From: a virus
Taxonomy: Duplodnaviria > Caudoviricetes
Reading direction: 5' to 3' (one strand)
Length of the DNA: 50,748 nt
IMG/VR virus record: IMGVR_UViG_3300030382_003949
Coordinates: 1 to 50,748 of that record
The notes under the pieces were generated by a model. That model was given only the letters and a program-made list of their open reading frames with translations. It searched no databases and was not told the DNA's origin. Below are positions 29,290 to 44,593 of the stretch, piece after piece (position 1 is the stretch's first letter; the number at the start of each line of letters is the position of its first letter). A program made the position numbers and the translations under genes.

Positions 29290-29347
29290 GAGGCCATCGC
29301 CCTAGGAGCGGGGAGGAAAGGAGGTGTAAACCCCGCACGATGACCTC
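29290..29347 (-). ncRNA. Candidate hairpin small RNA with an anti-SD-like loop (copy 1)
   Basis: On the - strand, the outer stem GAGGUCAUCG/CGAUGGCCUC and inner stem GCGGGG/CCCCGC enclose the loop UUUACACCUCCUUUCCU. Confidence 0.5.
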
Positions 29348-29356
29348 ACAATTCTT

Positions 29357-29933: not shown

Positions 29934-29946
29934 GAGGTTGTATCTC

Positions 29947-30213: not shown

Positions 30214-31552
30214 TTTTCAATTCCTTTTTCTTTTTTTTGTTGAATCTTTTTATTTCGGACATGGCCTGTTCGGTACTGTTCAATATCATGCATCTGTCTC
30301 CAACCACTCCCAATAGTTTGCTCCCTGTTTTTCCGTACCTGTTCTTTCCGAGAACTACTTCTATTCCGTATTCGCCCGACATCGAGTCCTGATAATTGTA
30401 TCTCCAGTCGTAGTACATGAACAGTATCATTTCGGCATCCTGTTCGATGGAGCCAGAATCTCTCAAGTCCCTGAGTATCGGTCTTTTGTTCGATCTGTCT
30501 TCACATGCCCTATTGAGCTGGGACACCAGTATGGCAGCCATATCGTAAGTTTTGGCGGCCCGTTTGTACTGTTTCATGATGCTGTCCACCCTCAACCTGT
30601 TGTCTTCCACTCCTACCACGTCTATGAGACCTATGTAGTCGTCAACCACAACGTCGGGACGATGCTTTCTCACTTCTCTCATGGCTCGGTCTATGTCGAA
30701 AACGTCGTCGTACATTATGAGATTCTTGTATTTGTCGGCAATGATGTTTTTTACGGCCTCCAGCTCCTGAATGTCCTTGTCCTCGAAACTTCCCATTCTC
30801 ATCGTGTGATACGAAAGTGAATCGCTTTCGACTATTATGAGTTTCTTCATCATTTCCACGTTGGACATTTCACGATTGAAAACCAAAACCTTAAGCCCTT
30901 TGTTCAGAAGATTGCTGACTATATTTATGGTCATGGTGGACTTGAAGTGACCGGGTCTTCCCGCTATGACAGTTATCTCGCCTCTCGTCATTCCTCCTGT
31001 AAGGTCGTCTATAGGCTTGAATCCGAATGGAACCACGTGCTCGGTTGTCGTCATGTGTTTGGAAGTGTCTTCGAGAAGTTTGTCGAGATCAAAGTCTTTG
31101 CGGATACGCAGATTGAGTATGTCTTCTATTTCACGATTCAGTCTCTGCAGGGCCGTATGGGCTCCGTCTCCGTCCATATCCATCACTTTCTCTATTCTTC
31201 TAGATTTGTCTATGACCTTTCTTAGCAGCCATTTTTCGTAGACCAACTTCGCATAATGTTCGGCGTTTGCCGTAGTGGCAACTTCCTGAATCAGTCCCGT
31301 GAGATAATATCCGGGCGATTCCAAAGTCGTGTTCTTCGGCATCTGAGACAAAATGGTTATCGGGTCTATAACCGACGATCCTTCCCTGTGAAGATCGAGT
31401 ATGCATTTCCATATCTGTTGATGTGCCGAGTCGTAGAAAACCTTCTCTTCAGGAATATACTGAGATATTTGATCAATTACGGCGTTGTCGGTCATTGATT
31501 GACCGAGTATGAGACGCTCGGCCTCTAAGCTATGTGGAGAAAGACTGTTCAT
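30203..31552 (-). CDS. dnaB: Replicative DNA helicase, DnaB family (449 aa)
   Basis: N-terminal PHSLEAERLILG, Walker A AGRPGHFKS, VVVDDYIGL, SQLNR, and RPILRDLRDSGSIEQDA. Confidence 0.95.
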   Translation of the reverse strand: MNSLSPHSLEAERLILGQSMTDNAVIDQISQYIPEEKVFYDSAHQQIWKCILDLHREGSSVIDPITILSQMPKNTTLESPGYYLTGLIQEVATTANAEHYAKLVYEKWLLRKVIDKSRRIEKVMDMDGDGAHTALQRLNREIEDILNLRIRKDFDLDKLLEDTSKHMTTTEHVVPFGFKPIDDLTGGMTRGEITVIAGRPGHFKSTMTINIVSNLLNKGLKVLVFNREMSNVEMMKKLIIVESDSLSYHTMRMGSFEDKDIQELEAVKNIIADKYKNLIMYDDVFDIDRAMREVRKHRPDVVVDDYIGLIDVVGVEDNRLRVDSIMKQYKRAAKTYDMAAILVSQLNRACEDRSNKRPILRDLRDSGSIEQDAEMILFMYYDWRYNYQDSMSGEYGIEVVLGKNRYGKTGSKLLGVVGDRCMILNSTEQAMSEIKRFNKKKKKELKNES

Positions 31553-31794
31553 TTCTTGGACTCCCCGTCAACTGCATAGACATACTTTTCTCCATCGATT
31601 TCAACAACTTTTATCTTATCAACATATCTCGTCGGCATATTTCTCTCAAAATCCAAATTTGAACTTAATACAAGTTTTCTCAAGTGTTTCAACCTTATCG
31701 GATTGTTTTCATATCTGAGGACTTTATACACGCTGTCGTAATAGTAACTGCTAAACATCCCCGGAGATGTCCATCTCCCTGACCAGTTTTGCAA
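31549..31794 (-). CDS. Hypothetical protein (true start may be the internal Met of MFSSY)
   Basis: Packed ORF coupled to the helicase gene. Confidence 0.5.
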   Translation of the reverse strand: MQNWSGRWTSPGMFSSYYYDSVYKVLRYENNPIRLKHLRKLVLSSNLDFERNMPTRYVDKIKVVEIDGEKYVYAVDGESKK

Positions 31795-32242
31795 CAGGTA
31801 TCTTATGGTATCCGTTTGAATCGTTCCACTCCTCTTTATATACGTTTACGATGACTCTCTTTCCTTCTATCATATCCAAAGAAATTAAAGGCAGGAGGTA
31901 TCTTATTTTACCATTTATTTCCTTTTTATTCAAGGAAATTCCGAGATTTTCGAGGAACTTTTTGTAGTGAATGTTGCTGTTTCTCGATCCTGCGTCATAG
32001 TATCTGAACAGTCCTCTGTCCCTTAGGATGCGTCCTTCGAAATCAGGCCCGTTTATTCTATATCGAGGCCAGAACAAATCGCATACTCCACCGCTCTTGG
32101 TGGTTTTCTTTATTCTTTTTCGAAGCCCTATTATAGTTGCTTCGTAGGTTCCCGGCGTTATATTGGATTCTATGCCGCTTTCTTCGTAGAATACCCCGCC
32201 ATCGTCTTCAACGTCCTTGACGAGGTCTTTTATGCCTGCCAT
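31751..32242 (-). CDS. Putative ssDNA-binding/OB-fold protein (DUF669-like, 163 aa)
   Basis: ITPGTYEATII...GPDFEGRILRD...IEGKRVIVNVYKEEW pattern; adjacent to the annealing-protein gene. Confidence 0.5.
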   Translation of the reverse strand: MAGIKDLVKDVEDDGGVFYEESGIESNITPGTYEATIIGLRKRIKKTTKSGGVCDLFWPRYRINGPDFEGRILRDRGLFRYYDAGSRNSNIHYKKFLENLGISLNKKEINGKIRYLLPLISLDMIEGKRVIVNVYKEEWNDSNGYHKIPVAKLVREMDISGDV

Positions 32243-32838
32243 CAGGTCTTGATGACGTAGGAGTCTTTAAGGTCTTGTATGCGGTTAAGGGCCTTCTTGT
32301 AGTTTTTCGAGTTCAAGGTGCCGTCTTCCATATAACCTCTTATGGAGGCCTCGTCTTTTTCGTTGAGTCCCTTGATGGCTCCGCTGATTTCCTTCTTCCA
32401 CACTCCGTTCTTGTTCTTTTCGAGAGAGTTTACGTATTTGTTGTCGTCGAACTTGCCCATGAACACGTCGGCATTGAATCCGATCTTACTCAGCCCTTTC
32501 GTAAGGGCATCTGTGCTTACTTTTTTGGAAAAGTCGTCATCGACTCGGTTGTTGTGGTGATATCTGATGGAGCTGTTGATGGGCAGAGTTCCGTCGTTTC
32601 CGTCGTATTTGTACCAGAGGGTGGCTTGGTACAGGGAAAGCCCAACTTCTTCCATTATGGTAAAATTTTCATCGGAAACTCCCCATCCTATGCCGAAAGG
32701 CCCGAACGTTTCAGTTGCCGTTTTGATTTGGTATTGGGCTCCTATTGCCGTGAACCCTCCACGCTGATTTACTTTTGTCGTGAATTCGGGGTCGGTGGTT
32801 TCAACCGAGCTCCACAAATCCATGTTCTTTTTAGCCAT
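32242..32838 (-). CDS. Rad52/Sak-like single-strand annealing protein (198 aa)
   Basis: TAIGAQYQIKTATETFGPFGIGWG...DDDFSKKVSTDALTKGLSKIGFNADVFMG matches the Rad52-like fold signature. Confidence 0.7.
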   Translation of the reverse strand: MAKKNMDLWSSVETTDPEFTTKVNQRGGFTAIGAQYQIKTATETFGPFGIGWGVSDENFTIMEEVGLSLYQATLWYKYDGNDGTLPINSSIRYHHNNRVDDDFSKKVSTDALTKGLSKIGFNADVFMGKFDDNKYVNSLEKNKNGVWKKEISGAIKGLNEKDEASIRGYMEDGTLNSKNYKKALNRIQDLKDSYVIKT

Positions 32839-32881
32839 TGTAGGCCTCCTTTGTTTGTTAAATTGGCGTATTGATGGATTT

Positions 32882-33049
32882 TTACACTTCGTCCATATCC
32901 ACTAAAGACCGATGCATCTCGTCGACTTTTTTTTCGACTCGCGTAAGCCTTAGTATTGTGCTGATCGTGAGAAACATGATCAGAACCATCGTAAATTCCC
33001 AATAGGGAAAGTATTCGCTCGAGAAAAGAGCTTCCCAATAATATCTCAT
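32882..33049 (-). CDS. Small membrane protein (55 aa, not in the ORF track)
   Basis: SD AAGGAG; MRYYWEALFSSEYFPYWEFTMVLIMFLTISTILRLTRVEKKVDEMHRSLVDMDEV has one TM segment and a short coiled coil. Confidence 0.7.
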   Translation of the reverse strand: MRYYWEALFSSEYFPYWEFTMVLIMFLTISTILRLTRVEKKVDEMHRSLVDMDEV

Positions 33050-33082
33050 TCTTGTACTCCTTGTTTTACTTTGTTGGTAATC

Positions 33083-33376
33083 TTACTCGTTGATGGCATC
33101 CCAGAACTTCTTCAGTTGAACAAGTCTTTTTCTATCATGTTCAACCAGTTTTTCGTCTTCTTGCATCTTATCTTTTTTCCGTTCTCTATCATTTTTTGTG
33201 TGAGCACTCAATGCCTGATTTGCAATCCTCTTCATAGCGGTTTTACTTCCTTCCGACAATGAAATCTTTCTCAATGCCTCCAAGTATATCTGCATGTGAT
33301 TTTCAAGATCGAGAAGCATCTCGTTTATGATGCCGTCCACCCTCAACCTGTTGGTCGTAATTTTTTTATCGTTCAT
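33083..33376 (-). CDS. Hypothetical helical protein (97 aa)
   Basis: SD AAGGAG. Confidence 0.65.
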   Translation of the reverse strand: MNDKKITTNRLRVDGIINEMLLDLENHMQIYLEALRKISLSEGSKTAMKRIANQALSAHTKNDRERKKDKMQEDEKLVEHDRKRLVQLKKFWDAINE

Positions 33377-33405
33377 CAGTTATGATCTCCTTTATTTTTT
33401 TAACG

Positions 33406-33489
33406 TAGGGGCATGGCAGCATCCTCCAAGCCAACCACACATTTTCAACAGTCATCCCGTTAAAAAGAAGTCTTGCACTTTTGCCCCTA
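33406..33489 (-). promoter_or_regulatory. GC-clamped intergenic stem structure
   Basis: TAGGGGCA (33406-33413) and TGCCCCTA (33482-33489) enclose about 70 nt. Confidence 0.45.
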
Positions 33490-34272
33490 ACCATTCAATC
33501 CTCCACCGCAAGGTTCATAGAAGTTGCAGTATTTATCGTTGCATTCCCATTTGTAGACGGGAGATATTCCGAGATTCACGTCCGGAATGTTGCCGTCCTT
33601 AACAAGTTCGTTTACAGTTGTCCAATATATCATAGCTTCATCTATGAATTCTTCACCAATATCCACTTCTTTCATCTTTGAATTGTCTTTGTTGTAGTAG
33701 CATATTTTCATGGATATGCTTTCAAGTTCGTAAAATCTTTTGGCCCATAGCCCGTAGGTGGCAAGTTGTGTAAAGTAATTCGTTGATGGGTTTGGATCGG
33801 GATACCTGCCAAACATTTTCTTCCACTTGAATGAATTGCATGTCTTTATGTCATAGAGAACGTGATCGTCTCCTTCAGCATCGAGTAGAGCCAAGTCGAT
33901 AAAGCCACGGACGTTTAAATCTTCAAGGTATATTTCTTTTTCTATCAGCAATGGGAGTCCATATTGCACGGCGTGGTCGGTAACGGCCTTCTGTACGTCT
34001 TCATGAACGAGATTTCCGAGCCTGAACAATCTTCTGGTGGTTTCATCGACTGGCTTTCTTTCGGAAGCATCTATCCGTGTACTGAAGTAATGCTTTCTCG
34101 CACATAAACCGGCCACACTGCTGTGAAACCAAGAATTGTCCTTGTACCGTGAGGCGACGTGTTTTTCGTCCAAGCCGACAAGGTACTGATTATATATTGA
34201 GCTGAGTTTGTTTTCCGTTTCCATTTCCACCTTTTTGATCCTTTCGGATATACGGAAATTACTTAAATTCAT
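33487..34272 (-). CDS. Cas4-like PD-(D/E)XK exonuclease with Fe-S cluster cysteines (start possibly 34224)
   Basis: N-terminal CARK, GNLVHE, RGFID...YDIKT, QLATY, and C-terminal CxxxxCxxxxxC. No CRISPR array nearby. Confidence 0.85.
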   Translation of the reverse strand: MNLSNFRISERIKKVEMETENKLSSIYNQYLVGLDEKHVASRYKDNSWFHSSVAGLCARKHYFSTRIDASERKPVDETTRRLFRLGNLVHEDVQKAVTDHAVQYGLPLLIEKEIYLEDLNVRGFIDLALLDAEGDDHVLYDIKTCNSFKWKKMFGRYPDPNPSTNYFTQLATYGLWAKRFYELESISMKICYYNKDNSKMKEVDIGEEFIDEAMIYWTTVNELVKDGNIPDVNLGISPVYKWECNDKYCNFYEPCGGGLNG

Positions 34273-34317
34273 TAAGTTTCAAAAACCTTTTTTTTAAAAT
34301 ATTTATTTTTTTTGGGT

Positions 34318-34382
34318 AATATATATATAATATAATATATATATCATATATGGCTATAGCCTTGCAAGGCCATAGCCATATA
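34318..34382. repeat. A/T-only tract plus a 36-bp near-perfect palindrome; candidate replication origin
   Basis: TATATGGCTATAGCCTTGCAAGGCCATAGCCATATA (34347-34382) has one mismatched pair and is preceded by an (AT)n tract. Confidence 0.6.
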
Positions 34383-34408
34383 CTGCCCTCTTTAAAGAGA
34401 ACTTACTA

Positions 34409-35197
34409 TTACCAGAATCTTAATTTATTTGAGGTTCTGGTATTGTAGACATCCTCTATTTGACGAAGATATTCGCCTTTGTTGCTTGCCTTTTTTATCG
34501 TACTCCCGAGATACTCCATTTTACTCTTCATGCGATTATGATCGTAATCAGAGTGTTTGAAGCAATCCATAAGAGCCAGTACGAAGTATCTGTCCGAACA
34601 ACGTTCGCACGACTCTTTGAGAGATTCCAGCATTTCCGCCTTTTCCGTAGCTTCCTTCAGGTTGTTTATCTTCATTTCTCCGGTCTTGAACAGGTAGTAC
34701 ATAGAGCCTCCCCATCCATCGAAGAAAATGGCAAACGCCGTCGAGAAGTTCAGGTCGTATTTCTTCATAAATCCGGCAAAAATCCTATAATCGTGAATAC
34801 CTGATTCTACCCAAGCATTCAAAAAATCATAGGCATTCCACTTGTCCTGCGAATTGTTCAGCTTTGCCACGGTTGATATGTCTATATCTTGCGTAGTATT
34901 ATACTGAATGGGGATGCCGAGTTCCGAGCACGCAATATATCGGTGCTGTCCGTCGAGTATCTCCATGTCGCCGTTGACGAGAATCGGATAAAACCTCGTA
35001 AGGTCTTTTTGCCGTATGGATTTACGGAGTCTTACAACTTTGCTTCGGCTGATTGGTCTGTTCCCCTTGAAAAAAGAGAACTGCGTATAGTTTTTAGTGG
35101 AAAACTGCTCCACTTCTTGAACTTTACGAGAGCCGATTGCAGCAGTGTCTATGATGGTTCCTCCATTTGTTGTGGAGGTCGTAGTTTCTCTGCTCAT
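34409..35197 (-). CDS. ParB-like N-terminal domain protein (262 aa)
   Basis: GNRPISRSKVVRLRKSI...PILVN...ILDGQHRYIAC. Confidence 0.85.
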   Translation of the reverse strand: MSRETTTSTTNGGTIIDTAAIGSRKVQEVEQFSTKNYTQFSFFKGNRPISRSKVVRLRKSIRQKDLTRFYPILVNGDMEILDGQHRYIACSELGIPIQYNTTQDIDISTVAKLNNSQDKWNAYDFLNAWVESGIHDYRIFAGFMKKYDLNFSTAFAIFFDGWGGSMYYLFKTGEMKINNLKEATEKAEMLESLKESCERCSDRYFVLALMDCFKHSDYDHNRMKSKMEYLGSTIKKASNKGEYLRQIEDVYNTRTSNKLRFW

Positions 35198-35222
35198 TTG
35201 CTACTCCTTTTGTTGTGTAAAT

Positions 35223-35519
35223 CTAATCCGCAGTGAAAATTTGCATAACGCCGTCACTTGAACCAGTTTTACGTTTTCTGTAATCAAGAACATTCTCCTT
35301 GAATGTCTTGCCTTTGTCCATAATTTCTTCGATTTCATCGGCATATTCGTATTCGTCCTTGTCGTATCCATATCCTTTACAGCATTCTCCACAGTATGCG
35401 TAACCACCTATGATCACGCCTCCGTTTACTTCATCCCCATAAGGGCCGTTGCATCCGTCGCAGAAGACGCTGTCGCCTAAATTACAGACCTTTTTAAGTT
35501 TAAAATCTTTAAAGTTCAC
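35223..35519 (-). CDS. Cys-rich hypothetical protein (98 aa)
   Basis: CDGC...CGEC; SD GGAGG. Confidence 0.65.
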   Translation of the reverse strand: MNFKDFKLKKVCNLGDSVFCDGCNGPYGDEVNGGVIIGGYAYCGECCKGYGYDKDEYEYADEIEEIMDKGKTFKENVLDYRKRKTGSSDGVMQIFTAD

Positions 35520-35724
35520 GCTTAATTATTTCCTCCGATCTTGCATAAATTACCCAAGCCAAGTATTCGTGATGTATTCCTTTTTTTTTCAAATCATCAG
35601 AAATCTCCGTAAAGTAAGACTTTAAGCTTGATAACCTATCTTCATTCTTATTTGTTTTTAGAATTTTGATGACTTTTTTTATTTGACTGTCGCTCAAAAT
35701 TTCCGATAGTTTTATTTGCAGCAT
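35509..35724 (-). CDS. Hypothetical protein (71 aa)
   Basis: SD AAGGA; packed ORF. Confidence 0.6.
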   Translation of the reverse strand: MLQIKLSEILSDSQIKKVIKILKTNKNEDRLSSLKSYFTEISDDLKKKGIHHEYLAWVIYARSEEIIKREL

Positions 35725-35744
35725 GATTTACTTTCCTTTTATTT

Positions 35745-35862
35745 TATTTGGGCAGTGAGAGCAATGCTACGTTATGCAGCCTCATGTTATATCCGATCTC
35801 TCTTGTACTTCAATTTCAGACATGGAAGGCACGTGTACTTTATTAAGCCATCTGCCCAAATA
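35745..35862 (-). promoter_or_regulatory. GC-clamped intergenic stem structure
   Basis: TATTTGGGCAG (35745-35755) and CTGCCCAAATA (35852-35862) form a perfect 11-bp inverted repeat around about 96 nt. Confidence 0.5.
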
Positions 35863-35872
35863 ACATTCATTT

Positions 35873-35924
35873 AGAGGGGTTGGGAGCGGGAGGAAAAGAG
35901 ACGAAACCCACTCCCCAAGCTCTG
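35873..35924 (-). ncRNA. Candidate hairpin small RNA with a pyrimidine-rich loop (copy 2)
   Basis: On the - strand, GGGAGUGGG/CCCGCUCCC encloses UUUCGUCUCUUUUCCU; homologous to 29290-29347. Confidence 0.5.
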
Positions 35925-35929
35925 TATTT

Positions 35930-36466
35930 TTAAGCTTCTCCCCTCGATTTTTTGTCCCATTCGAGGCGACTGAGCTCTGATGTCATCTCTTCGTCCAGCT
36001 CTACTTCTTTCGAATCTCTTTCGGAATACCCCATTTCGCTGAGGTCTACAAACGATGTGAACAATGTTCTGATAAGAGCCGTTTTTTGCTCTCCCACATC
36101 CGCACTCACTCCGATTCCAAGCTTTTCTTCTCTTTTTTCCGAACCCCATTCGGCAAGAATTTTTATCTCGCCTTCATCGAGCCCCAGCATTTCAGAGACC
36201 TTGTGAATTCCATTTATAAGAATGGACACTATCGTCATTCTTCGAGCCATTTCTTTTTCGTTTGAGGCATCATCATCCCATATGCCGGGTCTTTCGGAAA
36301 AATATTTCACAAATGCATCATATTTCTCCTCAGTGCTTTTAAAATTGCTTGAAATTAATTCGCAATCTACGGCCATAGACAAGGCATTCATCCTGTTTAC
36401 GCTCTCAGTTTGGGATTCGCCCAACTTTGCATCGCAAGGAGTGATGAATTTTCGTTTTTTAACCAT
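35930..36466 (-). CDS. Hypothetical helical protein (178 aa)
   Basis: SD AAGGAG, immediately downstream of the VWA gene. Confidence 0.7.
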   Translation of the reverse strand: MVKKRKFITPCDAKLGESQTESVNRMNALSMAVDCELISSNFKSTEEKYDAFVKYFSERPGIWDDDASNEKEMARRMTIVSILINGIHKVSEMLGLDEGEIKILAEWGSEKREEKLGIGVSADVGEQKTALIRTLFTSFVDLSEMGYSERDSKEVELDEEMTSELSRLEWDKKSRGEA

Positions 36467-36487
36467 TTTGTGCTCTCCTTTTTTCGG

Positions 36488-37528
36488 TTATTTCATTTTC
36501 TTTGCCGTTTTGGCAAACTGTCTTGTATTCGTGATGCCTGAGTAGACAACCAAATTCTTTGTATTGACTGAACTCATATTCTTTGTTATTCTACGTGCAG
36601 TATTGTAAATGTGACTTGTCGCATGATCTGCCCCATATTCAGTGCAAAAATAATAAACTTTATTGTGAATGGTGTTTTTTAAGGAGATGCCGGCGGCATC
36701 ATAGTCGCTGAATATTACGACTACCCTGTTTCTGAACAAACTCCATTGAGAAACTCCGGCAAGTATGTCCTGCGGAGTCAAAAATCTTTCAAATCGTTTT
36801 TTTCTGAGACTCCATCGATGCACTATGTGACCATTGGGTGCATCATACATTTCAACGTCTCCATATTCGGCCGCAACTACGGCCATTTTGCTGTAAAAGT
36901 TCGAATAATCACTACATGAGGGACTGCTGTCCAAAAGCAGAACTATTCTGCGTTTTTCTCTCGACATGCGACATTTTAGTATGGATTCTCTACTGATCTT
37001 GCGGGACATTATCCTGTTGACGTCCCAAAAATCGTCGCCTTCAATCTCTCCTCCAACATTGTCCTCTGCAATTTTTGACATCACTCTTGCAAAATTTGCT
37101 GCAATTCTTCTGTCTCTCACCGATTTCAGGTCGTATTTGCCGGGCATTGCCGGGTTCATGTTTATGCGAGACATTCCGTATGCCTCGTCGAATTTGTGTA
37201 CTTTATTCGCCACATCTCTATTCTGCATGTCAAGTCCGGCTAAAGAATAGGCTCCACTATAAACTGCTTCAACGGATCGAAAAGACGATTTATTGTTGTT
37301 ACTGAATTTTTTTGCAATTTTTGAAATATTGTTGTGAAACTTGCTCAAGCCGGGGAGCTTGATGCCCCCCGACTTGTTTTTCACTACATTAGAAATAGGC
37401 GTGATCTTCGTATTGGTTTTCTTTTTGCACGATATCACCTTCGCCGAGTTGATTTCTGATTTTATCTCGGGCGACGAAAAATCACGCCATCCAAAATTAA
37501 GAGTCTTGTGACTTGAATGCTTTTTCAA
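36488..37528 (-). CDS. VWA (MIDAS) domain-like protein (346 aa)
   Basis: RIVLLLDSSPSC (DxSxS) and VVVIFSD; overlaps the end of the AAA+ gene. Confidence 0.7.
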   Translation of the reverse strand: MKKHSSHKTLNFGWRDFSSPEIKSEINSAKVISCKKKTNTKITPISNVVKNKSGGIKLPGLSKFHNNISKIAKKFSNNNKSSFRSVEAVYSGAYSLAGLDMQNRDVANKVHKFDEAYGMSRINMNPAMPGKYDLKSVRDRRIAANFARVMSKIAEDNVGGEIEGDDFWDVNRIMSRKISRESILKCRMSREKRRIVLLLDSSPSCSDYSNFYSKMAVVAAEYGDVEMYDAPNGHIVHRWSLRKKRFERFLTPQDILAGVSQWSLFRNRVVVIFSDYDAAGISLKNTIHNKVYYFCTEYGADHATSHIYNTARRITKNMSSVNTKNLVVYSGITNTRQFAKTAKKMK

Positions 37529-39608
37529 GTGATTCTATCCTCTTTATCTTTGATTTCATAGATAGTGAAAGTGATGACGAGCTCAACTGTTCATCGCTTC
37601 TGAGAAATGCCGCAAACATTACGTGATCATACGATATTCTGGCATAAATGCCGTTTCGCACGAACACTTTGCTGTTCTTACTATTTACTTTCCATCCGCA
37701 TTTCTGAAGTTTGTCGCTTATGTCGCCACAGTGTTTGAAGCATCTGTACACCGGTATGGGATTGCGAAACCATCCCACTATCGTTTTCATCACCAATCCG
37801 TTTACGGCTCCGTCGATTTTCAAAAACGCAGCATATGGGCTGGTTCCATTGTAATCGTAGAACCTGAGACGCATGTTTGTAGCCGTAATCAACAGCCCGT
37901 CTTCTACACTCTTTGATTTTGCAACAGTGTGACCATTCAACAGGCTTTCCATGCCTTCGAAATCAACGTAGTTACAGTGCTCCAAAGGCTTCATCATCCG
38001 ACAAAATCCTTCATGATTTTCCATGCTTTTCAACAAACTGTTGCCTAAACTGTATGTTCCTGAAGCAACATTGGAAAAAATGTCGCACACGGCAACATTC
38101 GAAGATTTGTCTGATCCGATGTTTAGAAGAAAATCACCTGAAGCATCGTCGAGAGTGTACGAATAAACGAGGTTTTCGTTTTTGTTCATCTTAAAAAGAG
38201 ATGCCATTTGCTGCGGAGTGAGTCCTATGGGAGCGACTATTTCCAAACCGCTTTCTTCCCTGTATCTCAAATCGGCATAATTTCCGTTTCTTCCGACATG
38301 CCTTCTGGCAATTAATTCGTGCTTGTCTCTTTTGTGAACGTACCACTTCCCGGCAATCATTCTGTTGATCTCTTTGCGAGTGACATATTTGTCGGAGATT
38401 TTTATTTCTCCGTCGCAGTCCTCGAATTCTCCACTTTTCAGAAGAACTGCAATATCGGTAGACGCAAAATCTTCAAGTAGAAAATTATAGTGCTCCGTTA
38501 TTACTCCCCATTCCGAAAAGGCTGGAGTTTCAGGGTCTTCGCTGTCAAGATGACTACGCATGACTATGCTGTCGGCCTGTGAACTTCTCTTAATTACTGC
38601 AGAGGCATTCTCAGGCACTTCAACTGACTTCTTGAAAGACTCGTTGAACTGAAGCAGTTCGGTAAGTCTGGGCATTTCAGGATTTTTGGAGTTTCTTTTT
38701 TTGATTACTTCATCAACTCCATATCCTTCGGCATCTATTTTTGCCGCTCGCCTGACATCGACTCCTTCAACCTGTCGCTGATTGCTCAGCATTTCATGGT
38801 TTTCTGGCGTTTTAGTGACATACTGATACACCAAATCGTTCCAATCGGCATTGCTCCCCAAAGTAGTGATGGCATCCATCAACTGCCGGAGTTCCTGTAT
38901 TGTTGCAGGTTTCGGCATTGCTGCCGCCACACTACGCAAATACAAATCCAGCATCTGAGGAAGATAGCTGTGATTGGAATGAGTGATATTCAAGGCCTTC
39001 ACTACATCCGATGCCGACATCGGGTCTACATGAATCATCGGAAAGCGTCTCAAGAGAGCTTCGTGAAATTCGCGTTCGTCGTTGGCGGTTATGAAGATGG
39101 TGAGATTATCCATTTCGGCATATACCTCTCCTCCTTCGACACCGGGGATCGAAAGCCTTCCATATTGCAGAAAATCCAAAAAGAAACCATCGACGCTCGG
39201 TCTGGTTTTATCCCATTCGTCGAGCATCAATATTACTGGCTTCTTTCGTGATTCACAGGCAGCACGAAACAATTTGCCCTTTGATACCTTGACGCCGGAG
39301 GTAGTATTCTCCGACGGCATGAGTTTCACGAGCAAATCTTCTTCGCGAGTGCCTTGAGTGCATTGGTGTACGTACAGAGGCCGATTCAACACTTGAGCAA
39401 GTATTTGAGGCAAATAGGACTTTCCAGTCCCTGCCATTCCATAAAGAAACGCCCCGCCCATCGGCTTACTGTTTATTGAAGTCAGAACTTTTGCCGCAAA
39501 CTCTTCACTGCAGATATAACCTCTGTCGTTGAGCCTTTGGTGTAGTTCTGGGACTTCAAGCGTCCAGTTGGGCATTTCCCGAGGATCGGTACTTTGCTTG
39601 TTCGGCAT
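37497..39608 (-). CDS. MoxR-like AAA+ ATPase with a long C-terminal extension (703 aa)
   Basis: Walker A GMAGTGKS, Walker B ILMLDEWDK, sensor-1 ITAND, Arg finger EALLRRF. Confidence 0.88.
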   Translation of the reverse strand: MPNKQSTDPREMPNWTLEVPELHQRLNDRGYICSEEFAAKVLTSINSKPMGGAFLYGMAGTGKSYLPQILAQVLNRPLYVHQCTQGTREEDLLVKLMPSENTTSGVKVSKGKLFRAACESRKKPVILMLDEWDKTRPSVDGFFLDFLQYGRLSIPGVEGGEVYAEMDNLTIFITANDEREFHEALLRRFPMIHVDPMSASDVVKALNITHSNHSYLPQMLDLYLRSVAAAMPKPATIQELRQLMDAITTLGSNADWNDLVYQYVTKTPENHEMLSNQRQVEGVDVRRAAKIDAEGYGVDEVIKKRNSKNPEMPRLTELLQFNESFKKSVEVPENASAVIKRSSQADSIVMRSHLDSEDPETPAFSEWGVITEHYNFLLEDFASTDIAVLLKSGEFEDCDGEIKISDKYVTRKEINRMIAGKWYVHKRDKHELIARRHVGRNGNYADLRYREESGLEIVAPIGLTPQQMASLFKMNKNENLVYSYTLDDASGDFLLNIGSDKSSNVAVCDIFSNVASGTYSLGNSLLKSMENHEGFCRMMKPLEHCNYVDFEGMESLLNGHTVAKSKSVEDGLLITATNMRLRFYDYNGTSPYAAFLKIDGAVNGLVMKTIVGWFRNPIPVYRCFKHCGDISDKLQKCGWKVNSKNSKVFVRNGIYARISYDHVMFAAFLRSDEQLSSSSLSLSMKSKIKRIESLEKAFKSQDS

Positions 39609-39630
39609 GTTTCACTTCCTTTTTTTTAAC

Positions 39631-39778
39631 GTGCCGACCCCAACGCTCCGTTGGTTTCATACCTCCAATTCCACGAATCGGCACTAAAGTCTAAATCTTT
39701 AGGGATTGAAACGAAGGCTGGTGCGGATAGTTACAACGCCAAGTCATGCTTGACATGCACGTGCCACCGATACCAGCC
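39631..39778 (-). promoter_or_regulatory. Two GC-clamped stems upstream of the AAA+ gene
   Basis: GTGCCGA/TCGGCAC (39631-39684) and GGCTGGT/ACCAGCC (39716-39778). Confidence 0.45.
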
Positions 39779-39793
39779 CAAGTTTCATTTGCA

Positions 39794-39991
39794 CTACGTC
39801 TTGAATCTAGCTCCATAAAGGTCTTTAAGGTTTTTCAGGTGCTCCAATCGTTTTGCAGCTGATCCATTCGGCTTTATTTTGCCTTTTGCCTTAAGACCCT
39901 CGTAAACGAGTATCAACTCGCGTAGAGTTATTGACGATGTCGTACTTTTCACTTTTGCCGGTTTATCCGACTTATTTGATGAAAGCGTCAT
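39794..39991 (-). CDS. Hypothetical basic protein (65 aa)
   Basis: SD AAGGAGG; ATGA overlap. Confidence 0.65.
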   Translation of the reverse strand: MTLSSNKSDKPAKVKSTTSSITLRELILVYEGLKAKGKIKPNGSAAKRLEHLKNLKDLYGARFKT

Positions 39992-40206
39992 TTCGCCTCC
40001 TTTTTTTCTGAAAACAGCATGTCTCTGGTTTTCTCCGCCGACTTATGTATGGCATCCATCATTTCATCGACACTGTCCATAACTTCAAGCATTCTCACCA
40101 TGTCTTCATGACTCGACATGCCAGTCATGGCATCAACCAGCTCTCCGATTGCATCGGAAACTCCAACCCAACTGTTTATCAGCTTTGTTCTTTGTTCTTT
40201 GTTCAT
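39988..40206 (-). CDS. Hypothetical helical protein (72 aa)
   Basis: Packed early ORF. Confidence 0.65.
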   Translation of the reverse strand: MNKEQRTKLINSWVGVSDAIGELVDAMTGMSSHEDMVRMLEVMDSVDEMMDAIHKSAEKTRDMLFSEKKEAK

Positions 40207-40220
40207 GTTGCTTTTCCCTA

Positions 40221-40328
40221 TTAAATAATTGCCCTGATTATCTGAAAGAATATATTCAGCATACAGAAAATCACGAACAGATAAAAAGCTTCGTCGCTAG
40301 ACAGAAATTTAATTATCTTGTCTACCAT
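40221..40328 (-). CDS. Small membrane peptide (35 aa; shorter than the track call)
   Basis: MVDKIIKFLSSDEAFYLFVIFCMLNIFFQIIRAII; its start overlaps the stop of 40322-40453. Confidence 0.5.
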   Translation of the reverse strand: MVDKIIKFLSSDEAFYLFVIFCMLNIFFQIIRAII

Positions 40329-40453
40329 TTCAATGCTCTCTTCGCCATGCTCACCAACATTCCCCATACGAGAAGAGATAATGCCAGCACCAATGACGAT
40401 ATGCTGATGAAGAACAGGTTTGCCACCCATTCCCAAACATCTAAAAATATCAT
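40322..40453 (-). CDS. Small membrane protein (43 aa, not in the ORF track)
   Basis: SD AAGGAG; MIFLDVWEWVANLFFISISSLVLALSLLVWGMLVSMAKRALKW. Confidence 0.65.
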   Translation of the reverse strand: MIFLDVWEWVANLFFISISSLVLALSLLVWGMLVSMAKRALKW

Positions 40454-40592
40454 TTTGTGCTCCTTTTTTTACCTGTGTTGTAAAATATTGCGTAAAGTTG
40501 AGATTTTCTCATCTTCATAAATCTTGAAGGCGTAAGATTAAATCTTTTGGATGCCCATTGAACGAGCTCTTTCTTATTGGAGTAAGGACATC

Positions 40593-41048
40593 TCATCTGC
40601 CCAACAACTTGCGTATCTCCGACTTATACTTCGCTTCATCAATAGTTCCAGCATCATAATAATTGAACAATCGCTTCATTTGTTCGTATTTCCACTCCTT
40701 CTCGCTCTTCTCAAAGGTTACGAGTTTGTTTGGAACATAACGCATACCCTTCGGCATGCCTTTATATACATCTTTAAATTTTGGTTGCTCCATATTCAGA
40801 GTCACTGCGTCATTCGACCTGTAATTGGTTATCAATACGGGCAATCCCTTTTCAACGCCTTCTTCATCCAAATACATGGGTTTATAGCGTCTGAAAAATT
40901 CATTTACAAATGCCTTTTGATCTCTTGCAGGTATGTGAATCACATGCTCCACTCCAAGGCAACTAAATCTTATTTTATTTCTTTTTTCTATTGCAACAGT
41001 CATGAGAGTGTCATAACATTTGGTGTCTTTTATTTTATCTGACATCAT
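40593..41048 (-). CDS. Hypothetical early protein (151 aa), possible C-terminal SHOCT-like helix pair
   Basis: MKRLFNYYDAGTIDEAKYKSEIRKLL resembles a SHOCT motif. Confidence 0.65.
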   Translation of the reverse strand: MMSDKIKDTKCYDTLMTVAIEKRNKIRFSCLGVEHVIHIPARDQKAFVNEFFRRYKPMYLDEEGVEKGLPVLITNYRSNDAVTLNMEQPKFKDVYKGMPKGMRYVPNKLVTFEKSEKEWKYEQMKRLFNYYDAGTIDEAKYKSEIRKLLGR

Positions 41049-41067
41049 TAAATCTTTTATTGTTGTA

Positions 41068-41280
41068 TTATTCGTTTATTTGTTCTAAAAACCACTCTAA
41101 ACCAATGACTATTTCGAAGAGGTCTTTCTGAGACTCCTCTACAAAATCACATTTGAAACATGTTAAAACATTGATTGTTTCATTTATTTGTTTTGTTATT
41201 TTATTTATATCATCGTTTTTAAACACAGTTTGAGTCTGTGAAGTCTCAAAAGGTGTTTTTTCTTTTGTTGTTAGTGTCAT
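41068..41280 (-). CDS. Early hypothetical protein, acidic and alanine-free (70 aa)
   Basis: ORF track; no Ala. Confidence 0.65.
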   Translation of the reverse strand: MTLTTKEKTPFETSQTQTVFKNDDINKITKQINETINVLTCFKCDFVEESQKDLFEIVIGLEWFLEQINE

Positions 41281-41319
41281 TTGGTGTCTCTTTTGTTGTT
41301 GTTTAAATCTTTGGTGTTT

Positions 41320-41535
41320 TTAAAATTTTAAACGACTGATTACATCGAGTGTCGTTATTACTTCTTTGAGTTCGTTTTTAATTGGTTGGATGTTTTCATC
41401 ATCTTCAAACCAAGAAACAATGAATTCATAAACATTGTCAAGTGTTTCCTTATTGTCTTTTATAATCTCGGTGACATCTAAACAATTTCCATCACATTCA
41501 TTATTATTTGGACAATATTTTATTTTTGTTGTCAT
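41320..41535 (-). CDS. Early hypothetical protein, acidic and alanine-free (71 aa)
   Basis: SD TAAGGA; N-terminal Cys cluster; no Ala. Confidence 0.65.
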   Translation of the reverse strand: MTTKIKYCPNNNECDGNCLDVTEIIKDNKETLDNVYEFIVSWFEDDENIQPIKNELKEVITTLDVISRLKF

Positions 41536-41585
41536 ATTTCCTTACCTGTGTTGGTGTTTACTGTGTGTGTTAGGATTAACTGTTT

Positions 41586-41619
41586 AAAAGAGGGGATATC
41601 TACTATGACATCCCCTCTT
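41586..41619 (-). terminator. Rho-independent terminator after the first leftward gene
   Basis: On the - strand, AAGAGGGGAUGUC-AUAGUA-GAUAUCCCCUCUU-UU lies just downstream of the stop at 41632. Confidence 0.7.
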
Positions 41620-41631
41620 CAATGGTATGTG

Positions 41632-42099
41632 TTATTTAGGTTTGTATGTCGTTTTCATGACAACTCTACCTTCTGGTGTCTTGATGTACTCACGAAAGAA
41701 AACATGAGGTTTGTACATCTTTCCAGACTTACCGATAAAAACATCATTCTCGTTACTATTCTCGTTAATGATCGTCATTATTTTCGTTTTGGTGTCGTTC
41801 ATAATGTCGGAATAGTCCTCCATGTTCCGATTCCCAATACCTTCTGATGAAGGTGGTCTTTGGTTCATGAGTCCGAGTGTCTTAACCTTGACTCTGACCA
41901 TCTCGACATTATATGTCTTGGTCTTCTGGTCGAAACATTCGTAGAGGTGTGTTTTCCAGTTCTTACCACCGATATTGATAAGGTTCTTATTGTTGACAGA
42001 ATCAACAAACCAATCCAATATGGTGATGTTTGAGGGTAGAGGAGGTAGTGAATCCAACACCGACACCGGTGAAGGTGTCGTTTGAGTATCTTTACCCAT
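41632..42099 (-). CDS. First gene of the leftward arm, hypothetical and alanine-free (155 aa)
   Basis: SD AAGGAG, with its own promoter and terminator; no Ala in 155 aa. Confidence 0.75.
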   Translation of the reverse strand: MGKDTQTTPSPVSVLDSLPPLPSNITILDWFVDSVNNKNLINIGGKNWKTHLYECFDQKTKTYNVEMVRVKVKTLGLMNQRPPSSEGIGNRNMEDYSDIMNDTKTKIMTIINENSNENDVFIGKSGKMYKPHVFFREYIKTPEGRVVMKTTYKPK

Positions 42100-42127
42100 G
42101 TTAGTTAATCTCCTTTTTCATGATCAG

Positions 42128-42156
42128 AAGTTACGATGATATAATTTAATAATCAA
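42128..42156 (-). promoter_or_regulatory. Sigma70-type early promoter (leftward)
   Basis: On the - strand, TTGATT-17 nt-TAACTT, with AT-rich upstream sequence. Confidence 0.6.
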
Positions 42157-42273
42157 TAAACCATTGGTAGACTATATTTATTGAGTCCATCAATAAAAAA
42201 TCTTAGATTACATATAGCCTACATTATGTATAATTAATTTTAACCCAAAACTTTAATCTCAATAAGAAAACAA

Positions 42274-42306
42274 CCGGGATGGGGGCGGGGTAAAAGAAGG
42301 CCCCAC
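42274..42306. other. G-tract element at the arm-divergence point; candidate packaging/terminus signal
   Basis: CCGGGATGGGGGCGGGGTAAAAGAAGGCCCCAC in otherwise very AT-rich non-coding DNA. Confidence 0.4.
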
Positions 42307-42364
42307 ATTGTAAGCCTATTTTTCCAATTTCCACACGTTTTAAGTTATTTCTTTAATTACTTTA

Positions 42365-42430
42365 GCTTTGCTATAGCTATGGCTATGGCTATGCTATGGC
42401 TATTGCTATGCTATATATATATATATAATA
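42365..42430. repeat. Array of GCTAT(G/A/T) repeats followed by (TA)n
   Basis: GCTTTGCTATAGCTATGGCTATGGCTATGCTATGGCTATTGCTATGCTATATATATATATATAATA contains 8 GCTAT units. Confidence 0.85.
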
Positions 42431-42528
42431 GGGAATCTTTATGTTTTTAACGGGAATCGGGATTGTTCTTGTTTTTATGGTTAGATTCTTCTTATATTGA
42501 CGTCCAATAAAACTGGAGTCTTGAAATA

Positions 42529-42624
42529 ATGAAAAAGAGTAGGAAATCCAATAAATTGTTCAAATCGGTGCTGAAGGCTTTGAAAAAGCCAGTGAAATTG
42601 CCGTTTAAGTTTAAGAAATGGTAG
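42529..42624 (+). CDS. Cationic 31-aa peptide (not in the ORF track)
   Basis: SD GGAG near 42515; MKKSRKSNKLFKSVLKALKKPVKLPFKFKKW. Confidence 0.5.
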   Translation: MKKSRKSNKLFKSVLKALKKPVKLPFKFKKW

Positions 42625-42836
42625 TGCCTCTGCCGATGACTTCCCTTATTTCTTCAGCAAGGAAACACTGTGCAAACTGGAATGACGGCGACTGCCTTGG
42701 TTGTATGATAAAAGTGTCCGATAAATCCATAATTTTTAGGGTTTCAGGCAGATTTGCAGGATTTCCGTGTCAAGTGTGCGACAAATGCGACTATTTCGAC
42801 AGAATAGTGGTGCCGGGTATCAAAAATGAAGCTTGA
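42618..42836 (+). CDS. Cys-rich hypothetical protein (about 72 aa)
   Basis: HCANW...CLGC...PCQVCDKCDYF. Confidence 0.6.
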   Translation: MVVPLPMTSLISSARKHCANWNDGDCLGCMIKVSDKSIIFRVSGRFAGFPCQVCDKCDYFDRIVVPGIKNEA

Positions 42837-43023
42837 TAGTCTTGATTTGGTGGATACCATAGGCAGACTGCGTGAGATATGTAGAAAACTTAACGTTTCC
42901 AAGATTATCGATGGTAATGCAGATCAGATAGAGATGATTGTGGAAATAAAGGAGAGAGTGATGTCCCTTGAAGTGGAAAGAGTGGATATGGGAAACGTCG
43001 ATCTTATGGAATACAGGGCCTGA
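42826..43023 (+). CDS. Hypothetical protein (65 aa)
   Basis: Packed ORF. Confidence 0.6.
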   Translation: MKLDSLDLVDTIGRLREICRKLNVSKIIDGNADQIEMIVEIKERVMSLEVERVDMGNVDLMEYRA

Positions 43024-43024
43024 T

Positions 43025-43840
43025 ATGGGCAAGAAAAAGATTCACAAAAGGGCCGTAATAGTTCCGGACATACATTTCCCATTGCAGGACGATCCTGCCG
43101 TGGAAGTTGTGTTGAAGTCCATAAAAATGGTAAAGCCGAATATATTCGTGTGTCTTGGAGACCTTGGCGAATGGAAAAGTGTTTCTCCTTTCAAATACAA
43201 GCGCCGTAAGAGGCCTCCTCTTGAATACGTGATAGAAGACCTTCAAAAGGAAATCGATGCCGTTGAAAAAGGGCTGGACAGGTTTGATAAGGTATTGAAA
43301 TCGGTGAAATGCTCGGAAATGCACATGATTGAGGGCAATCACGATAATTGGTTGAATTTCTTTGTGGAGGAATATCCCTATCTAAAGAAGTTCAGATTCG
43401 AAAATGCCATGCATTTGGCAGAAAGGGGATATAAATACCATCCTTACGGCAAATATTTGAAAATAGGAAAATTGTATTTTTATCACGGAGGTCATTATAC
43501 GACCACGTATCATACGAAACAACATGCCGAGAAACTCGGTAAGAACGTGGTGTATGGACATATGCACGACGTTCAGAGACATGGCGTTACTCACGTCGAT
43601 GGAGCCCATCATGGATTCTCATTGGGATGTCTTAAGGACATGAAGAGAGAAGCCAACCTGTGGCTTAGAGGCAGAATGCATAATTGGGCACATGCCTTTG
43701 CCATAGTCGATTGGTTCGAAGACGGAAACTTCAGAATAGACGTGATAGACATACATAAAGGAAAAACTTACGTATGGGGAAAACTCATAGACGGAAATGC
43801 AGCATCCGGAGGGGTGGCAAGGGCGAAGAGAAGTCATTAG
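43025..43840 (+). CDS. Calcineurin-like metallophosphoesterase (start corrected to ATG 43025)
   Basis: DIH, LGD, GNHD, HG and GHxH motifs in canonical order. Confidence 0.9.
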   Translation: MGKKKIHKRAVIVPDIHFPLQDDPAVEVVLKSIKMVKPNIFVCLGDLGEWKSVSPFKYKRRKRPPLEYVIEDLQKEIDAVEKGLDRFDKVLKSVKCSEMHMIEGNHDNWLNFFVEEYPYLKKFRFENAMHLAERGYKYHPYGKYLKIGKLYFYHGGHYTTTYHTKQHAEKLGKNVVYGHMHDVQRHGVTHVDGAHHGFSLGCLKDMKREANLWLRGRMHNWAHAFAIVDWFEDGNFRIDVIDIHKGKTYVWGKLIDGNAASGGVARAKRSH

Positions 43841-43855
43841 GTTGGGAGTGATGCT

Positions 43856-44593
43856 GTGAAATCGAAACTGATTGGTAAAAAGACGGAACGACTGTATGAT
43901 GATAAAGATGAGTTTTTAAATAACTCTGATGAGGAACTCTCTGGAGACTGGCGTACGTCAAAAACCGGCGATTGGGTTGTTTCTGACGATGGTCAGGTAT
44001 GCCGAATACTTCATCGCGGAGCCTTTTCAGACGGCAAGGAGTACGTTCGTACCATACTTGGAACCTATCCCGTAAGAAAAAACGTTCTTATGCAGGGTGA
44101 AATTGCAGAGGACGTGTATAGATTCAGCAAATCAAACAAGAATAGAAAATATAGGATTGAAGACAAAAATCCAAATGGCAGGGAAATCGTGTTTGCCAAG
44201 TACGTGGCCAACGGAATGCCTCCGGATCAGGCTTATTTGAGAATATTCAAAACCAATGATTCGGTTTATTCCAAGAATGCGTCGTCGGCCCTGCTTAAAA
44301 CCAAGAGGGTCAAGAAATTGATAAGTGAAGAAACAAAGAAAATGATGGGCAAGGTCGGTATCGATGAAGAATACTTGCTTCACAATACGAAATACGTCAT
44401 AGACGATGAGGATGGCCGGGCTTCGGATAAGTTGAGAGCCATAGAAATGTTGATGAAAGTTTCCGGAATGTTCCCAAACGACAAGAAAACGGAATCGCTT
44501 ACCGTGTTTCAGGGATTCAGCAAAGAACAACTGCAGTCTCTGAATAGTGGAAAAGCGAAGGCTTTGGGACATGCAGAAAAAGATATCACATAG
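43856..44593 (+). CDS. Terminase small subunit-like protein with an N-terminal extra domain (245 aa)
   Basis: REIVFAKYVANGMPPDQAYLRIF...NASSALLK HTH-like segment and SDKLRAIEMLMK helix; upstream of the large terminase. Confidence 0.7.
   Translation: MKSKLIGKKTERLYDDKDEFLNNSDEELSGDWRTSKTGDWVVSDDGQVCRILHRGAFSDGKEYVRTILGTYPVRKNVLMQGEIAEDVYRFSKSNKNRKYRIEDKNPNGREIVFAKYVANGMPPDQAYLRIFKTNDSVYSKNASSALLKTKRVKKLISEETKKMMGKVGIDEEYLLHNTKYVIDDEDGRASDKLRAIEMLMKVSGMFPNDKKTESLTVFQGFSKEQLQSLNSGKAKALGHAEKDIT

Follow-up and report, generated by a model that had tools for sequence, protein, structure and literature searches.

In phage T7 about 850 bp of the genome enter the cell before transcription pulls in the remainder, and the first gene codes for an anti-restriction protein. 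For T5-like phages published work describes restriction, CRISPR and Ssp defences as acting only via sites in the first-step-transfer DNA. The pre-early genes of T5 are described as destroying the host DNA while the first segment is in the cell, and the way in which T5 spares its own DNA is given as unknown. Murciaviruses are reported to escape the Mme2I Type I system when its motif is missing from the first-injected region, and work on T7 and the Type III enzyme EcoP15I reports that sites are tolerated in one orientation only. Here we analyse a locus that may carry this kind of avoidance to an extreme: a zone of 1222 nt that contains no GpC dinucleotide (a G followed by a C), located at positions 40995-42216 of the IMG/VR virus record IMGVR_UViG_3300030382_003949. 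The complete 50,748-bp record was analysed and is referred to as the window.

The window contains 2003 GpC in total, and none of them lies in the zone on either strand. The longest distance between two GpC is 1224 bp (from the G at 40993 to the G at 42217) and the second longest only 203 bp. Given the base composition of the zone (323 A, 199 C, 206 G and 494 T; 33.1% G+C) we would expect 33.5 GpC. In 20,000 mononucleotide shuffles of the zone we obtained a mean of 33.5 with a standard deviation of 4.85, and no shuffle had fewer than 15. We compared all 16 dinucleotides and found no gap above 335 bp for any of the others; multiplying the gap length by the genome-wide density of the dinucleotide gives 48.3 for GpC and 16.8 for the runner-up. 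The shuffles and the comparison with the other dinucleotides rule out chance and base composition as the cause of the gap. The observed/expected ratio (O/E) of GpC is 0.95 genome-wide, all 16 NGCN contexts occur at normal levels in the window outside the zone, and both flanks are ordinary, with 102 GpC compared to 88.5 expected for 39000-40994 and 78 compared to 79 expected for 42217-44200. An assembly artefact can be ruled out as well, since separately assembled sequences show the zone again, as do the contigs of four runs. The first-pass annotation of the window had noticed the gap from the sequence alone, had described GpC as common on both flanks and had argued against a compositional cause from a hand count of about 27 CpG in the same interval. 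The computed number of CpG is exactly 27, and the description is right in all countable details.

Three genes lie completely inside the zone, all of them on the minus strand. Gene 1, the first early gene (41632-42099), encodes 155 amino acids with an isoelectric point (pI) of 9.2 and belongs to an orphan family restricted to the clade described below. It is directly followed by an intrinsic terminator (41586-41617, minus strand; -19 kcal/mol) with an 11-bp stem and a T run. Gene 2 (41320-41535; 71 amino acids, pI 4.3) and gene 3 (41068-41280; 70 amino acids, pI 4.5) encode acidic proteins, and gene 2 has homologues in some of the relatives. The three proteins contain no alanine among their 296 residues, compared to 7.05% in the other open reading frames (ORFs) of at least 100 amino acids (P ~4e-10), and the codons AGC, GGC, TGC and CGC are not used in any of the three ORFs. 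Gene 4 (40593-41048, minus strand; 151 amino acids) belongs to a family that is conserved in the relatives. The zone stops 55 nt into this gene, and its first alanine is residue 19, at the end of the zone. The terminator stem is built from G-runs and C-runs and hence has no GpC either. The first-pass annotation had listed the absence of alanine, the first alanine of the next gene and the GpC-free stem, and had concluded that selection acts on the nucleic acid and not on the protein. We come to the same conclusion, as the purge extends over non-coding DNA and the terminator as well as over three unrelated ORFs and the initial 55 nt of another. A cause at the level of tRNA-Ala or of the protein is ruled out, because non-coding DNA and GpC that span two codons are missing too. 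The promoter that had also been placed in the zone could not be established: a simple sigma-70 scan gave nothing convincing on the minus strand. A scan of 40500-43000 against Rfam returned nothing above threshold.

Searches of genes 1-3 against Pfam, PHROGs, NCBIfam, PADLOC, PDB sequences and the ESM Atlas gave no match. The gene-1 profile aligned to PDB sequences only over 24 residues of a designed Kelch propeller, and it also matched a 1777-amino-acid VWA repeat protein (P0014); we treated both as chance. No relative of gene 1 was found in the GTDB species genomes, so there is no clue to the host.

To find relatives of the phage, single-protein searches were of no use in IMG/VR, where neither gene 1 nor gene 4 returned one, whereas alignment-based searches did find relatives. 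With an alignment of gene-1 proteins as query we obtained 13 IMG/VR contigs and 34 metagenome loci, some of them from the same assemblies. A GpC-free or nearly GpC-free stretch is present in 13 of 13 contigs and 34 of 34 loci: gene 1 holds 0-1 GpC in each, compared to 25-51 GpC per kb outside. Two gene-1 homologues with 92% and 76% identity both lack alanine. Five IMG/VR contigs encode an AAA protein with about 50% identity, and all five carry the GpC-free stretch at the same place, with lengths of 853, at least 840, 986, 1066 (with one GpC inside) and 1246 bp. When we searched with the conserved DNA element described below alone, a GpC-poor stretch followed downstream in all 21 loci recovered; two of these element-bearing lineages are less strict and have 3 GpC within their first 300-530 nt. 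Pooled over 14 loci (12,715 nt) the zones contain 7 GpC compared to 348 expected (O/E 0.02), and the O/E in the 3-kb downstream flanks is 1.27. Syntenic zones occur across this group of uncultured marine phages, in all relatives recovered and at protein identities as low as about 45%, and nowhere did the genes homologous to gene 1 show a normal GpC content. The gene-1 family itself is small, with 12 matches at E <= 0.001 among 1.84 billion cluster representatives. We retrieved 11 of these 12: nine have no alanine, one has two, and one (P0006) has alanine only in a tail that is unrelated to the family and that we take to be adapter-derived.

The window stretch is present in 20 listed marine runs from 16 studies, which indicates a widespread phage and an ecologically relevant interaction; no RNA dataset is among the listed runs that contain the stretch. 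In contigs from four marine runs there are at least 28 variants within the zone. None of the 28 listed creates a GpC, compared to 11-14% of the possible substitutions. The difference is weakly significant and points weakly to a constraint that is ongoing in marine populations. Among the phages in GenBank (50,697 records) we found no match for the window DNA, the AAA protein, gene 1 or the junction element.

A number of the relative contigs have irregular ends. Many (L014, L016, L018, L022, L023 and others) stop in or just after gene 1 or begin near the TA/iteron array, probably as a result of strain variation and a simple repeat breaking the assembly; highly variable genes 2-3 would be compatible with these breaks as well. 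In one 8041-bp IMG/VR contig (L170/L164) the element occurs twice at a distance of 346 nt, and each copy is followed by a different leader variant and then by the same gene-1 start. We considered a repeat junction and rejected it, as the arrangement looks like two strain variants joined by the assembler.

The anatomy of the zone is similar across the clade. Upstream of it lies a conserved non-coding element of about 55 nt (42281-42336, minus strand), which reads GTGTGGAAA ... TACAATGTG ... followed by a C-rich tract and occurs as a single copy in the genome. In an alignment the element hardly varies, even between relatives with only half of their protein residues in common, and it sits upstream of the zone in the relatives as well. 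It is a candidate terminal-repeat or packaging site, or a candidate early promoter. Immediately upstream of the element we found a (TA)n run followed by about nine ATAGC-type iterons (42362-42430, no strand assigned). Every GpC of the iteron array lies in an AGC context, and similar TA/AGC arrays are present in the relatives. Downstream of the element the order is operator-like palindrome or palindromes, gene 1 and intrinsic terminator. In the window the palindrome ACATAAT ... ATATGT (42207-42236, minus strand), spotted by eye and without statistics, lies between the element and gene 1, and the GpC at 42217 that bounds the zone is its centre. The relatives have 1-3 copies of the ACATAAT/ATTATGT palindrome (including the 5' leaders of L012, L013 and L164), and several of the few tolerated GpC sit at a palindrome centre. 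It is a candidate repressor site for an early switch. Gene 1 is the only gene found in nearly all zones; one lineage with the element (L168) carries another first ORF of 144 amino acids.

The two edges of the zone behave differently. The upstream edge is fixed: the last GpC is found at +34 to +50 of the element in most loci, where +50 is the C-rich tract. The downstream edge is soft. Its distance from the element is 863-1401 nt, it falls within different genes at positions that are not homologous, we found no common motif there, and beyond it GpC is back at once to one per 25-30 nt. A terminator follows gene 1 in 9 of 9 loci in one scan and in 19 of 20 distinct segments in another; the second scan required at least 5 T, and its one miss is the terminator of the window itself (4 T), which the nine-locus scan found. 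Measured from the T run, GpC-free DNA continues past the terminator for 81-603 nt in the 19 segments, and for 81-165 nt in 12 of them. At its smallest a zone thus comprises the transcription unit of gene 1 and a margin of ~80 nt or more, an anatomy that suits a physical or time window better than a gene.

The purge concerns GpC itself. Palindromes without a GC step occur in about the expected numbers in the pooled zones (observed/expected: ACGT 54/38, CATG 42/38, GTAC 47/38, CCGG 18/9.5, TCGA 24/38), whereas AGCT, GGCC, CGCG, TGCA and GCGC are each found 0-1 times. As only the GC-containing palindromes are missing, a general avoidance of restriction palindromes is ruled out. Two further tetranucleotides deserve mention. 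GATC is low in the relatives L009-L023, both in the zones (3 compared to 38 expected) and in the 3-kb flanks (6 compared to 66), and only mildly low in the window (128 compared to 224 expected from a second-order Markov model). This depletion is equal in zone and flanks and hence a separate, genome-wide matter; the contrast between the relatives and the window suggests that the hosts, or the systems directed at GATC, differ from one clade member to another. The flanks of the relatives are also poor in GCGC, with 3 occurrences compared to 22 expected.

Although every NGCN context is purged by more than 95% in the zones, the few GpC that are tolerated are not a random sample. Between +55 and +860 we counted 21 distinct contexts on the coding strand: 10 YGCY, 8 YGCR, 3 RGCY and no RGCR. 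The background flanks have 30% YGCY, 18% YGCR, 22% RGCY and 30% RGCR. Six of the eight tolerated YGCR lie in the operator region, and several of the 21 contexts are homologous, so that the independent events number perhaps a dozen. The strand bias is real but weaker than its P of ~5e-6 suggests, as that value rests on a hand-compiled list of 13 sites. YGCY and RGCR are one and the same double-strand site seen from opposite strands, so the bias implies that something reads one strand or moves one way.

The position of the zone in the genome is informative too. Genes on the plus strand extend from ~42.6 kb across the arbitrary start of the record to 27.3 kb and include a metallophosphoesterase, the terminase, a likely portal, capsid genes, a tail spike and a 2008-amino-acid protein. 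Minus-strand genes occupy the stretch from 42.1 kb to 27.9 kb; besides the small orphan genes there are those for an AAA_5 ATPase, a VWA protein, a PD-(D/E)XK/Cas4-like nuclease, a DnaB-type helicase and a DNA methylase. The zone is the head of this early arm, at the divergent junction of 42.1-42.6 kb. The terminase shares 25-27% identity with its counterparts in Vibrio phage ICP2 and the cobaviruses. Short direct terminal repeats and T7-like packaging are reported for the cobaviruses, VpV262 and RIO-1, and the terminal repeats of related podophages are reported to be 70-100% identical. In Klebsiella phage Klyazma, a member of the Zobellviridae, PhageTerm and Sanger sequencing have verified terminal repeats of 711 bp; its record shows the structural arm beginning at the left repeat and the early arm at the right repeat. 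By analogy the junction at 42.1-42.6 kb would hold the ends of the phage in the window, and the conserved element may belong to the repeat. The record also has a 77-bp direct terminal repeat, an exact overlap that continues a long open frame. We read it as an assembly overlap and not as a physical end. Likewise, a doubled depth over 42314-42447 was set aside, as it comes from other contigs landing on the TA repeat.

The explanation that we favour, tentatively and at a little under even confidence, is that the zone is a stealth module, exposed first and invisible to a GpC-directed nuclease for as long as its own genes have not yet acted. The zone would then be a clade-conserved immediate-early module made up of the junction element, the operator/promoter region, gene 1, the terminator and a margin of at least ~80 nt. 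It would adjoin the probable direct-terminal-repeat end of a Zobellviridae-like podophage of the T7 supergroup and, at the outset of infection, no other phage DNA would lie exposed in the cell, either because ~1 kb enters passively or because entry is pulled by RNA polymerase and halts at the terminator. A nuclease that recognises little beyond the GpC step would be active in this first stage. Any GpC in the exposed module would be lethal and would be purged, even at the price of banning alanine. Once the product of gene 1 has been made (in this phage together with two small acidic proteins), the activity would be neutralised or switched off, and the GpC-normal remainder would enter or survive. 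The GpC-directed activity may belong to a host defence or, about equally, to the phage's own shredder of host DNA, comparable to the pre-early degradation by T5.

Several observations agree with a first-exposed module. A single GpC in ~1 kb is apparently intolerable and ~2000 elsewhere are harmless, which implies enzyme-like recognition combined with protection in time or space. The size of at least 0.86 kb, the fixed start at the junction element, the terminator and the soft downstream edge all fit. The terminator after gene 1 is compatible with a stop in transcription-driven entry and is not evidence of one. The leading-end position is indirectly backed by the ends of Klyazma and by the precedents for first-injected regions.

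There are also a number of points that weigh against this explanation. To our knowledge no bacterial nuclease, of host or phage, has a 2-bp GpC specificity, and a search of the Creative Commons-licensed full text in PubMed Central and bioRxiv found none either. ICP2 and Klyazma, both cultured Zobellviridae, have no dinucleotide-free zone of any kind, so that the trait belongs to the clade and not to the architecture. The record of ICP2 is cut at the convergent junction and not at the divergent one, though these cuts may not be physical ends, and contigs from the listed runs bridge the junction in our phage, as a concatemer or a collapsed repeat also would. Just upstream of the zone there are 1-4 GpC in the element and about nine in the iterons, and if these are the first to enter a separate excuse is needed, such as a redundant repeat or bound proteins. 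Database searches with gene 1 returned no recognisable anti-defence or nuclease fold or family. Finally, a symmetric palindromic enzyme acting on double-stranded DNA does not predict the strand bias of the tolerated GpC. A nuclease, or another system aimed at nucleic acids, that recognises just GpC with a strand-sensitive preference for the neighbouring bases and acts in the first minutes of infection of abundant marine bacteria is possible in our view, if on balance doubtful. It could be an undescribed host immunity, common enough to have shaped the clade as a whole, or a phage-borne shredder of the host genome that spares the first-stage phage DNA only because the motif is missing there, with gene 1 as its inhibitor, its switch or the enzyme itself.

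The strand bias is also the main argument for placing the constraint on the RNA, which we consider unlikely but the strongest of the alternatives. The immediate-early mRNA would have to survive an endoribonuclease of a toxin-antitoxin or abortive-infection system that cuts at GC, gene 1 would encode the inhibitor, and no message but this first one would need to be free of the motif. Such pairs have parallels: Dmd of T4 inhibits RnlA, and mRNA interferases with short motifs exist, e.g. MqsR, which cuts at GCU. A 5' pyrimidine in 18 of the 21 tolerated GpC and the lack of RGCR on the sense strand would be natural for an RNase. As GC is its own reverse complement, purging the RNA purges both DNA strands. 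Furthermore the zone begins about where a transcript from the TACAAT-like box of the element would begin. However, in all 19 scored segments the zone continues beyond the strong terminator into the next genes, and it stops at arbitrary positions inside ORFs. GpC of the classes that are otherwise not tolerated occur at +118 to +140, inside a transcript that begins at the element. The tolerated sites are mostly CGCU and UGCU and thus contain the target of MqsR, which excludes the known GCU enzyme. An MqsR-type interferase that cuts at GCU or GCA can be rejected on the same grounds, with all contexts purged and the zone passing the terminator.

A second alternative involves the methylase of the phage itself, and we regard it as clearly less probable than a constraint on the RNA. 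The last gene of the early arm (27975-28826, minus strand) encodes a beta-class DNA methyltransferase (PF01555, E = 4e-53) with SPPY as motif IV (TSPPYY). Motif IV of the type SPPY or SPPF marks N4-cytosine enzymes, and DPPY or NPPY marks adenine enzymes. The product, which also matches N4-cytosine enzymes, is therefore a predicted N4-cytosine-type methylase, and a link to the zone is possible. The enzyme would mark GpC-centred sites of the virion DNA and the leader would be kept unmethylatable, so that modification-dependent nucleases (McrBC-type, R-mC) could not cut it before an inhibitor is made. The motif is consistent with this, and in the two relatives long enough to contain the gene the methylase is 75-76% identical where the AAA protein is only ~50% identical. 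ICP2 and Klyazma have neither an annotated methylase nor the zone. Hiraoka et al. 2022 report RGCY, an N4-methylcytosine motif, as the commonest methylated motif in marine viral genomes. However, an RGCY enzyme would not explain why YGCR and YGCY/RGCR are purged by more than 95%, the AGC-rich iterons and element upstream would be methylated, and the scarcity of GCGC in the flanks of the relatives suits a blanket methylation of GpC poorly. The methylase family has 459 relatives in IMG/VR. In the 80 loci examined (45-90% identity) no GpC gap of this kind lies up to 10 kb to either side, and normalised gaps reach 18.6 at most, compared to 48.3 in the window; this test is weak, as the zone of the window lies 12-14 kb from the methylase gene. 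There is a slightly smaller chance that the explanation lies outside all those considered here.

Less probable still is a mutational footprint, which we consider very unlikely. A cytosine deaminase with a preference for the GC context would act on the exposed or heavily transcribed single-stranded leader in each infection and convert GC to GT or AC at a rate that outpaces its restoration by selection. GT and AC are indeed in excess in the zone of the window (O/E 1.30 and 1.16, compared to 0.84 genome-wide) and in the pooled zones (1.26 and 1.38), the G+C content is 33% in the zone compared to 41-43% in the flanks, and a strand bias among the survivors would be expected for an enzyme acting on single-stranded DNA. 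However, the pooled zones are enriched in GG and CC as well (1.42 and 1.31), so the replacement was not by transitions alone. The edges are sharp and the zone extends past the terminator. A near-complete loss across deep divergence with intact and conserved ORFs looks like selection, although on the present data very strong recurrent mutation could hardly be told apart from selection. A cis-acting requirement of the phage (an origin- or repeat-adjacent stretch without priming or terminase-cutting sites, or the mechanics of the last-packaged DNA) strikes us as the least credible explanation, even though the zone borders on AT-rich iterons and on a conserved element of the sort seen at origins or packaging sites, and some phage primases use GC-containing trinucleotides: our partial scan of the ORFs found only a DnaB-type helicase (30203-31552, minus strand) and no phage primase, a mechanical property would be statistical and not absolute, only one side of the junction has a zone, and the downstream edge has no conserved motif, unlike the boundary of a repeat.

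Some neighbouring genes are worth recording. The early-arm ORFs scanned (27900-42100 on the minus strand, not including all small ORFs) contain no DNA polymerase or primase, unlike those of ICP2 and Klyazma. The AAA_5 ATPase (703 amino acids) and the VWA/CoxE-like protein (346 amino acids) at 36488-39608 on the minus strand form a CobS/CobT-like pair, as in ICP2. An ORF at 34409-35197 (minus strand) has a weak ParB-like match (NCBIfam, E = 0.003), which is below the cut-off. A 2026 PNAS paper links ParB-type partners to sequence-specific phage DNA-modifying dioxygenases; no such dioxygenase was seen in the window. In the structural arm the ORF of 2008 amino acids (18804-24830, plus strand) matches nothing in Pfam or PHROGs. 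Large polyvalent protein families with LPD domains are among the ESM-Atlas clusters closest to it, which we note as a lead only, and its place in the arm is that of the giant internal virion proteins in ICP2 and Klyazma. The idea that it is a virion RNA polymerase was dropped, as no Pfam or PHROG match stands behind it.

Motif-poor leading regions are known for restriction sites of 5-7 bp in T5-like and T7-like phages. What differs here is a kilobase that lacks a dinucleotide across a deeply diverged clade, at the cost of alanine-free proteins and terminators without GpC. We found no report of a GpC-free or dinucleotide-free phage region, or of a GpC-specific N4 methylase, in the Creative Commons-licensed full text searched. 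The purge implies near-lethal selection coefficients for a 2-bp feature and points to an enzyme activity, of host or phage, that has not yet been described; it suggests that GpC comes under attack in the infected cell at a time when the phage has no defence in place. A zone free of some k-mer and next to a conserved junction element is also a signature that can be read from the DNA alone, and all phage genomes could be scanned for it in order to locate leading ends, immediate-early anti-defence genes and the specificities of defences that are still unknown.

We conclude by comparing the locus with the systems it most resembles. Closest in architecture are the Zobellviridae Klyazma and ICP2, which share the two-arm layout, the CobS/CobT-like pair of AAA and VWA proteins and the giant internal virion proteins, and Klyazma has terminal repeats at the heads of both arms. 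Unlike this clade they have no dinucleotide-free zone, no homologue of gene 1 and no conserved element. Any kinship would be a distant one, with a similar architecture, a terminase only 25-27% identical to that of ICP2, and an AAA protein and gene 1 that are unmatched in the 50,697 phage records. The Type III case of EcoP15I and T7 shares the orientation-dependent tolerance, which in our clade takes the form that the tolerated GpC are never RGCR on the coding strand. However, Type III sites are 5-6 bp long, whereas here the purge exceeds 95% in all contexts and the orientation bias is a second-order effect of ~12-21 events, some of them not independent. For the T7-like Autographiviridae and Murciavirus, only motifs in the first-injected DNA are reported to decide sensitivity, and the ~850 bp that enter first in T7 match our zones of 0.86-1.4 kb. 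These phages differ in having collinear genomes and their own RNA polymerase, and the motifs they avoid are long, host-specific and variable between isolates, whereas here it is one dinucleotide that the clade as a whole avoids. The first-step-transfer DNA of T5 is alike in that the earliest genes are reported to lie on the segment that enters first, and that sites in the remainder of the genome do no harm because it is protected. It is a terminal-repeat segment of ~10 kb without particular 6-bp sites, whereas the zone in this clade measures ~1 kb, usually holds one gene, lacks a 2-bp step with consequences for the amino acids, and would belong to a staged entry that we infer. As in these first-injected DNAs, the motif is missing locally and common elsewhere (0 compared to 33.5 expected in the zone, 2003 in the genome). 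We therefore see the zone as an extreme form of the avoidance of motifs in leading regions, with a substantial chance that a categorically new activity with a 2-bp specificity lies behind it.

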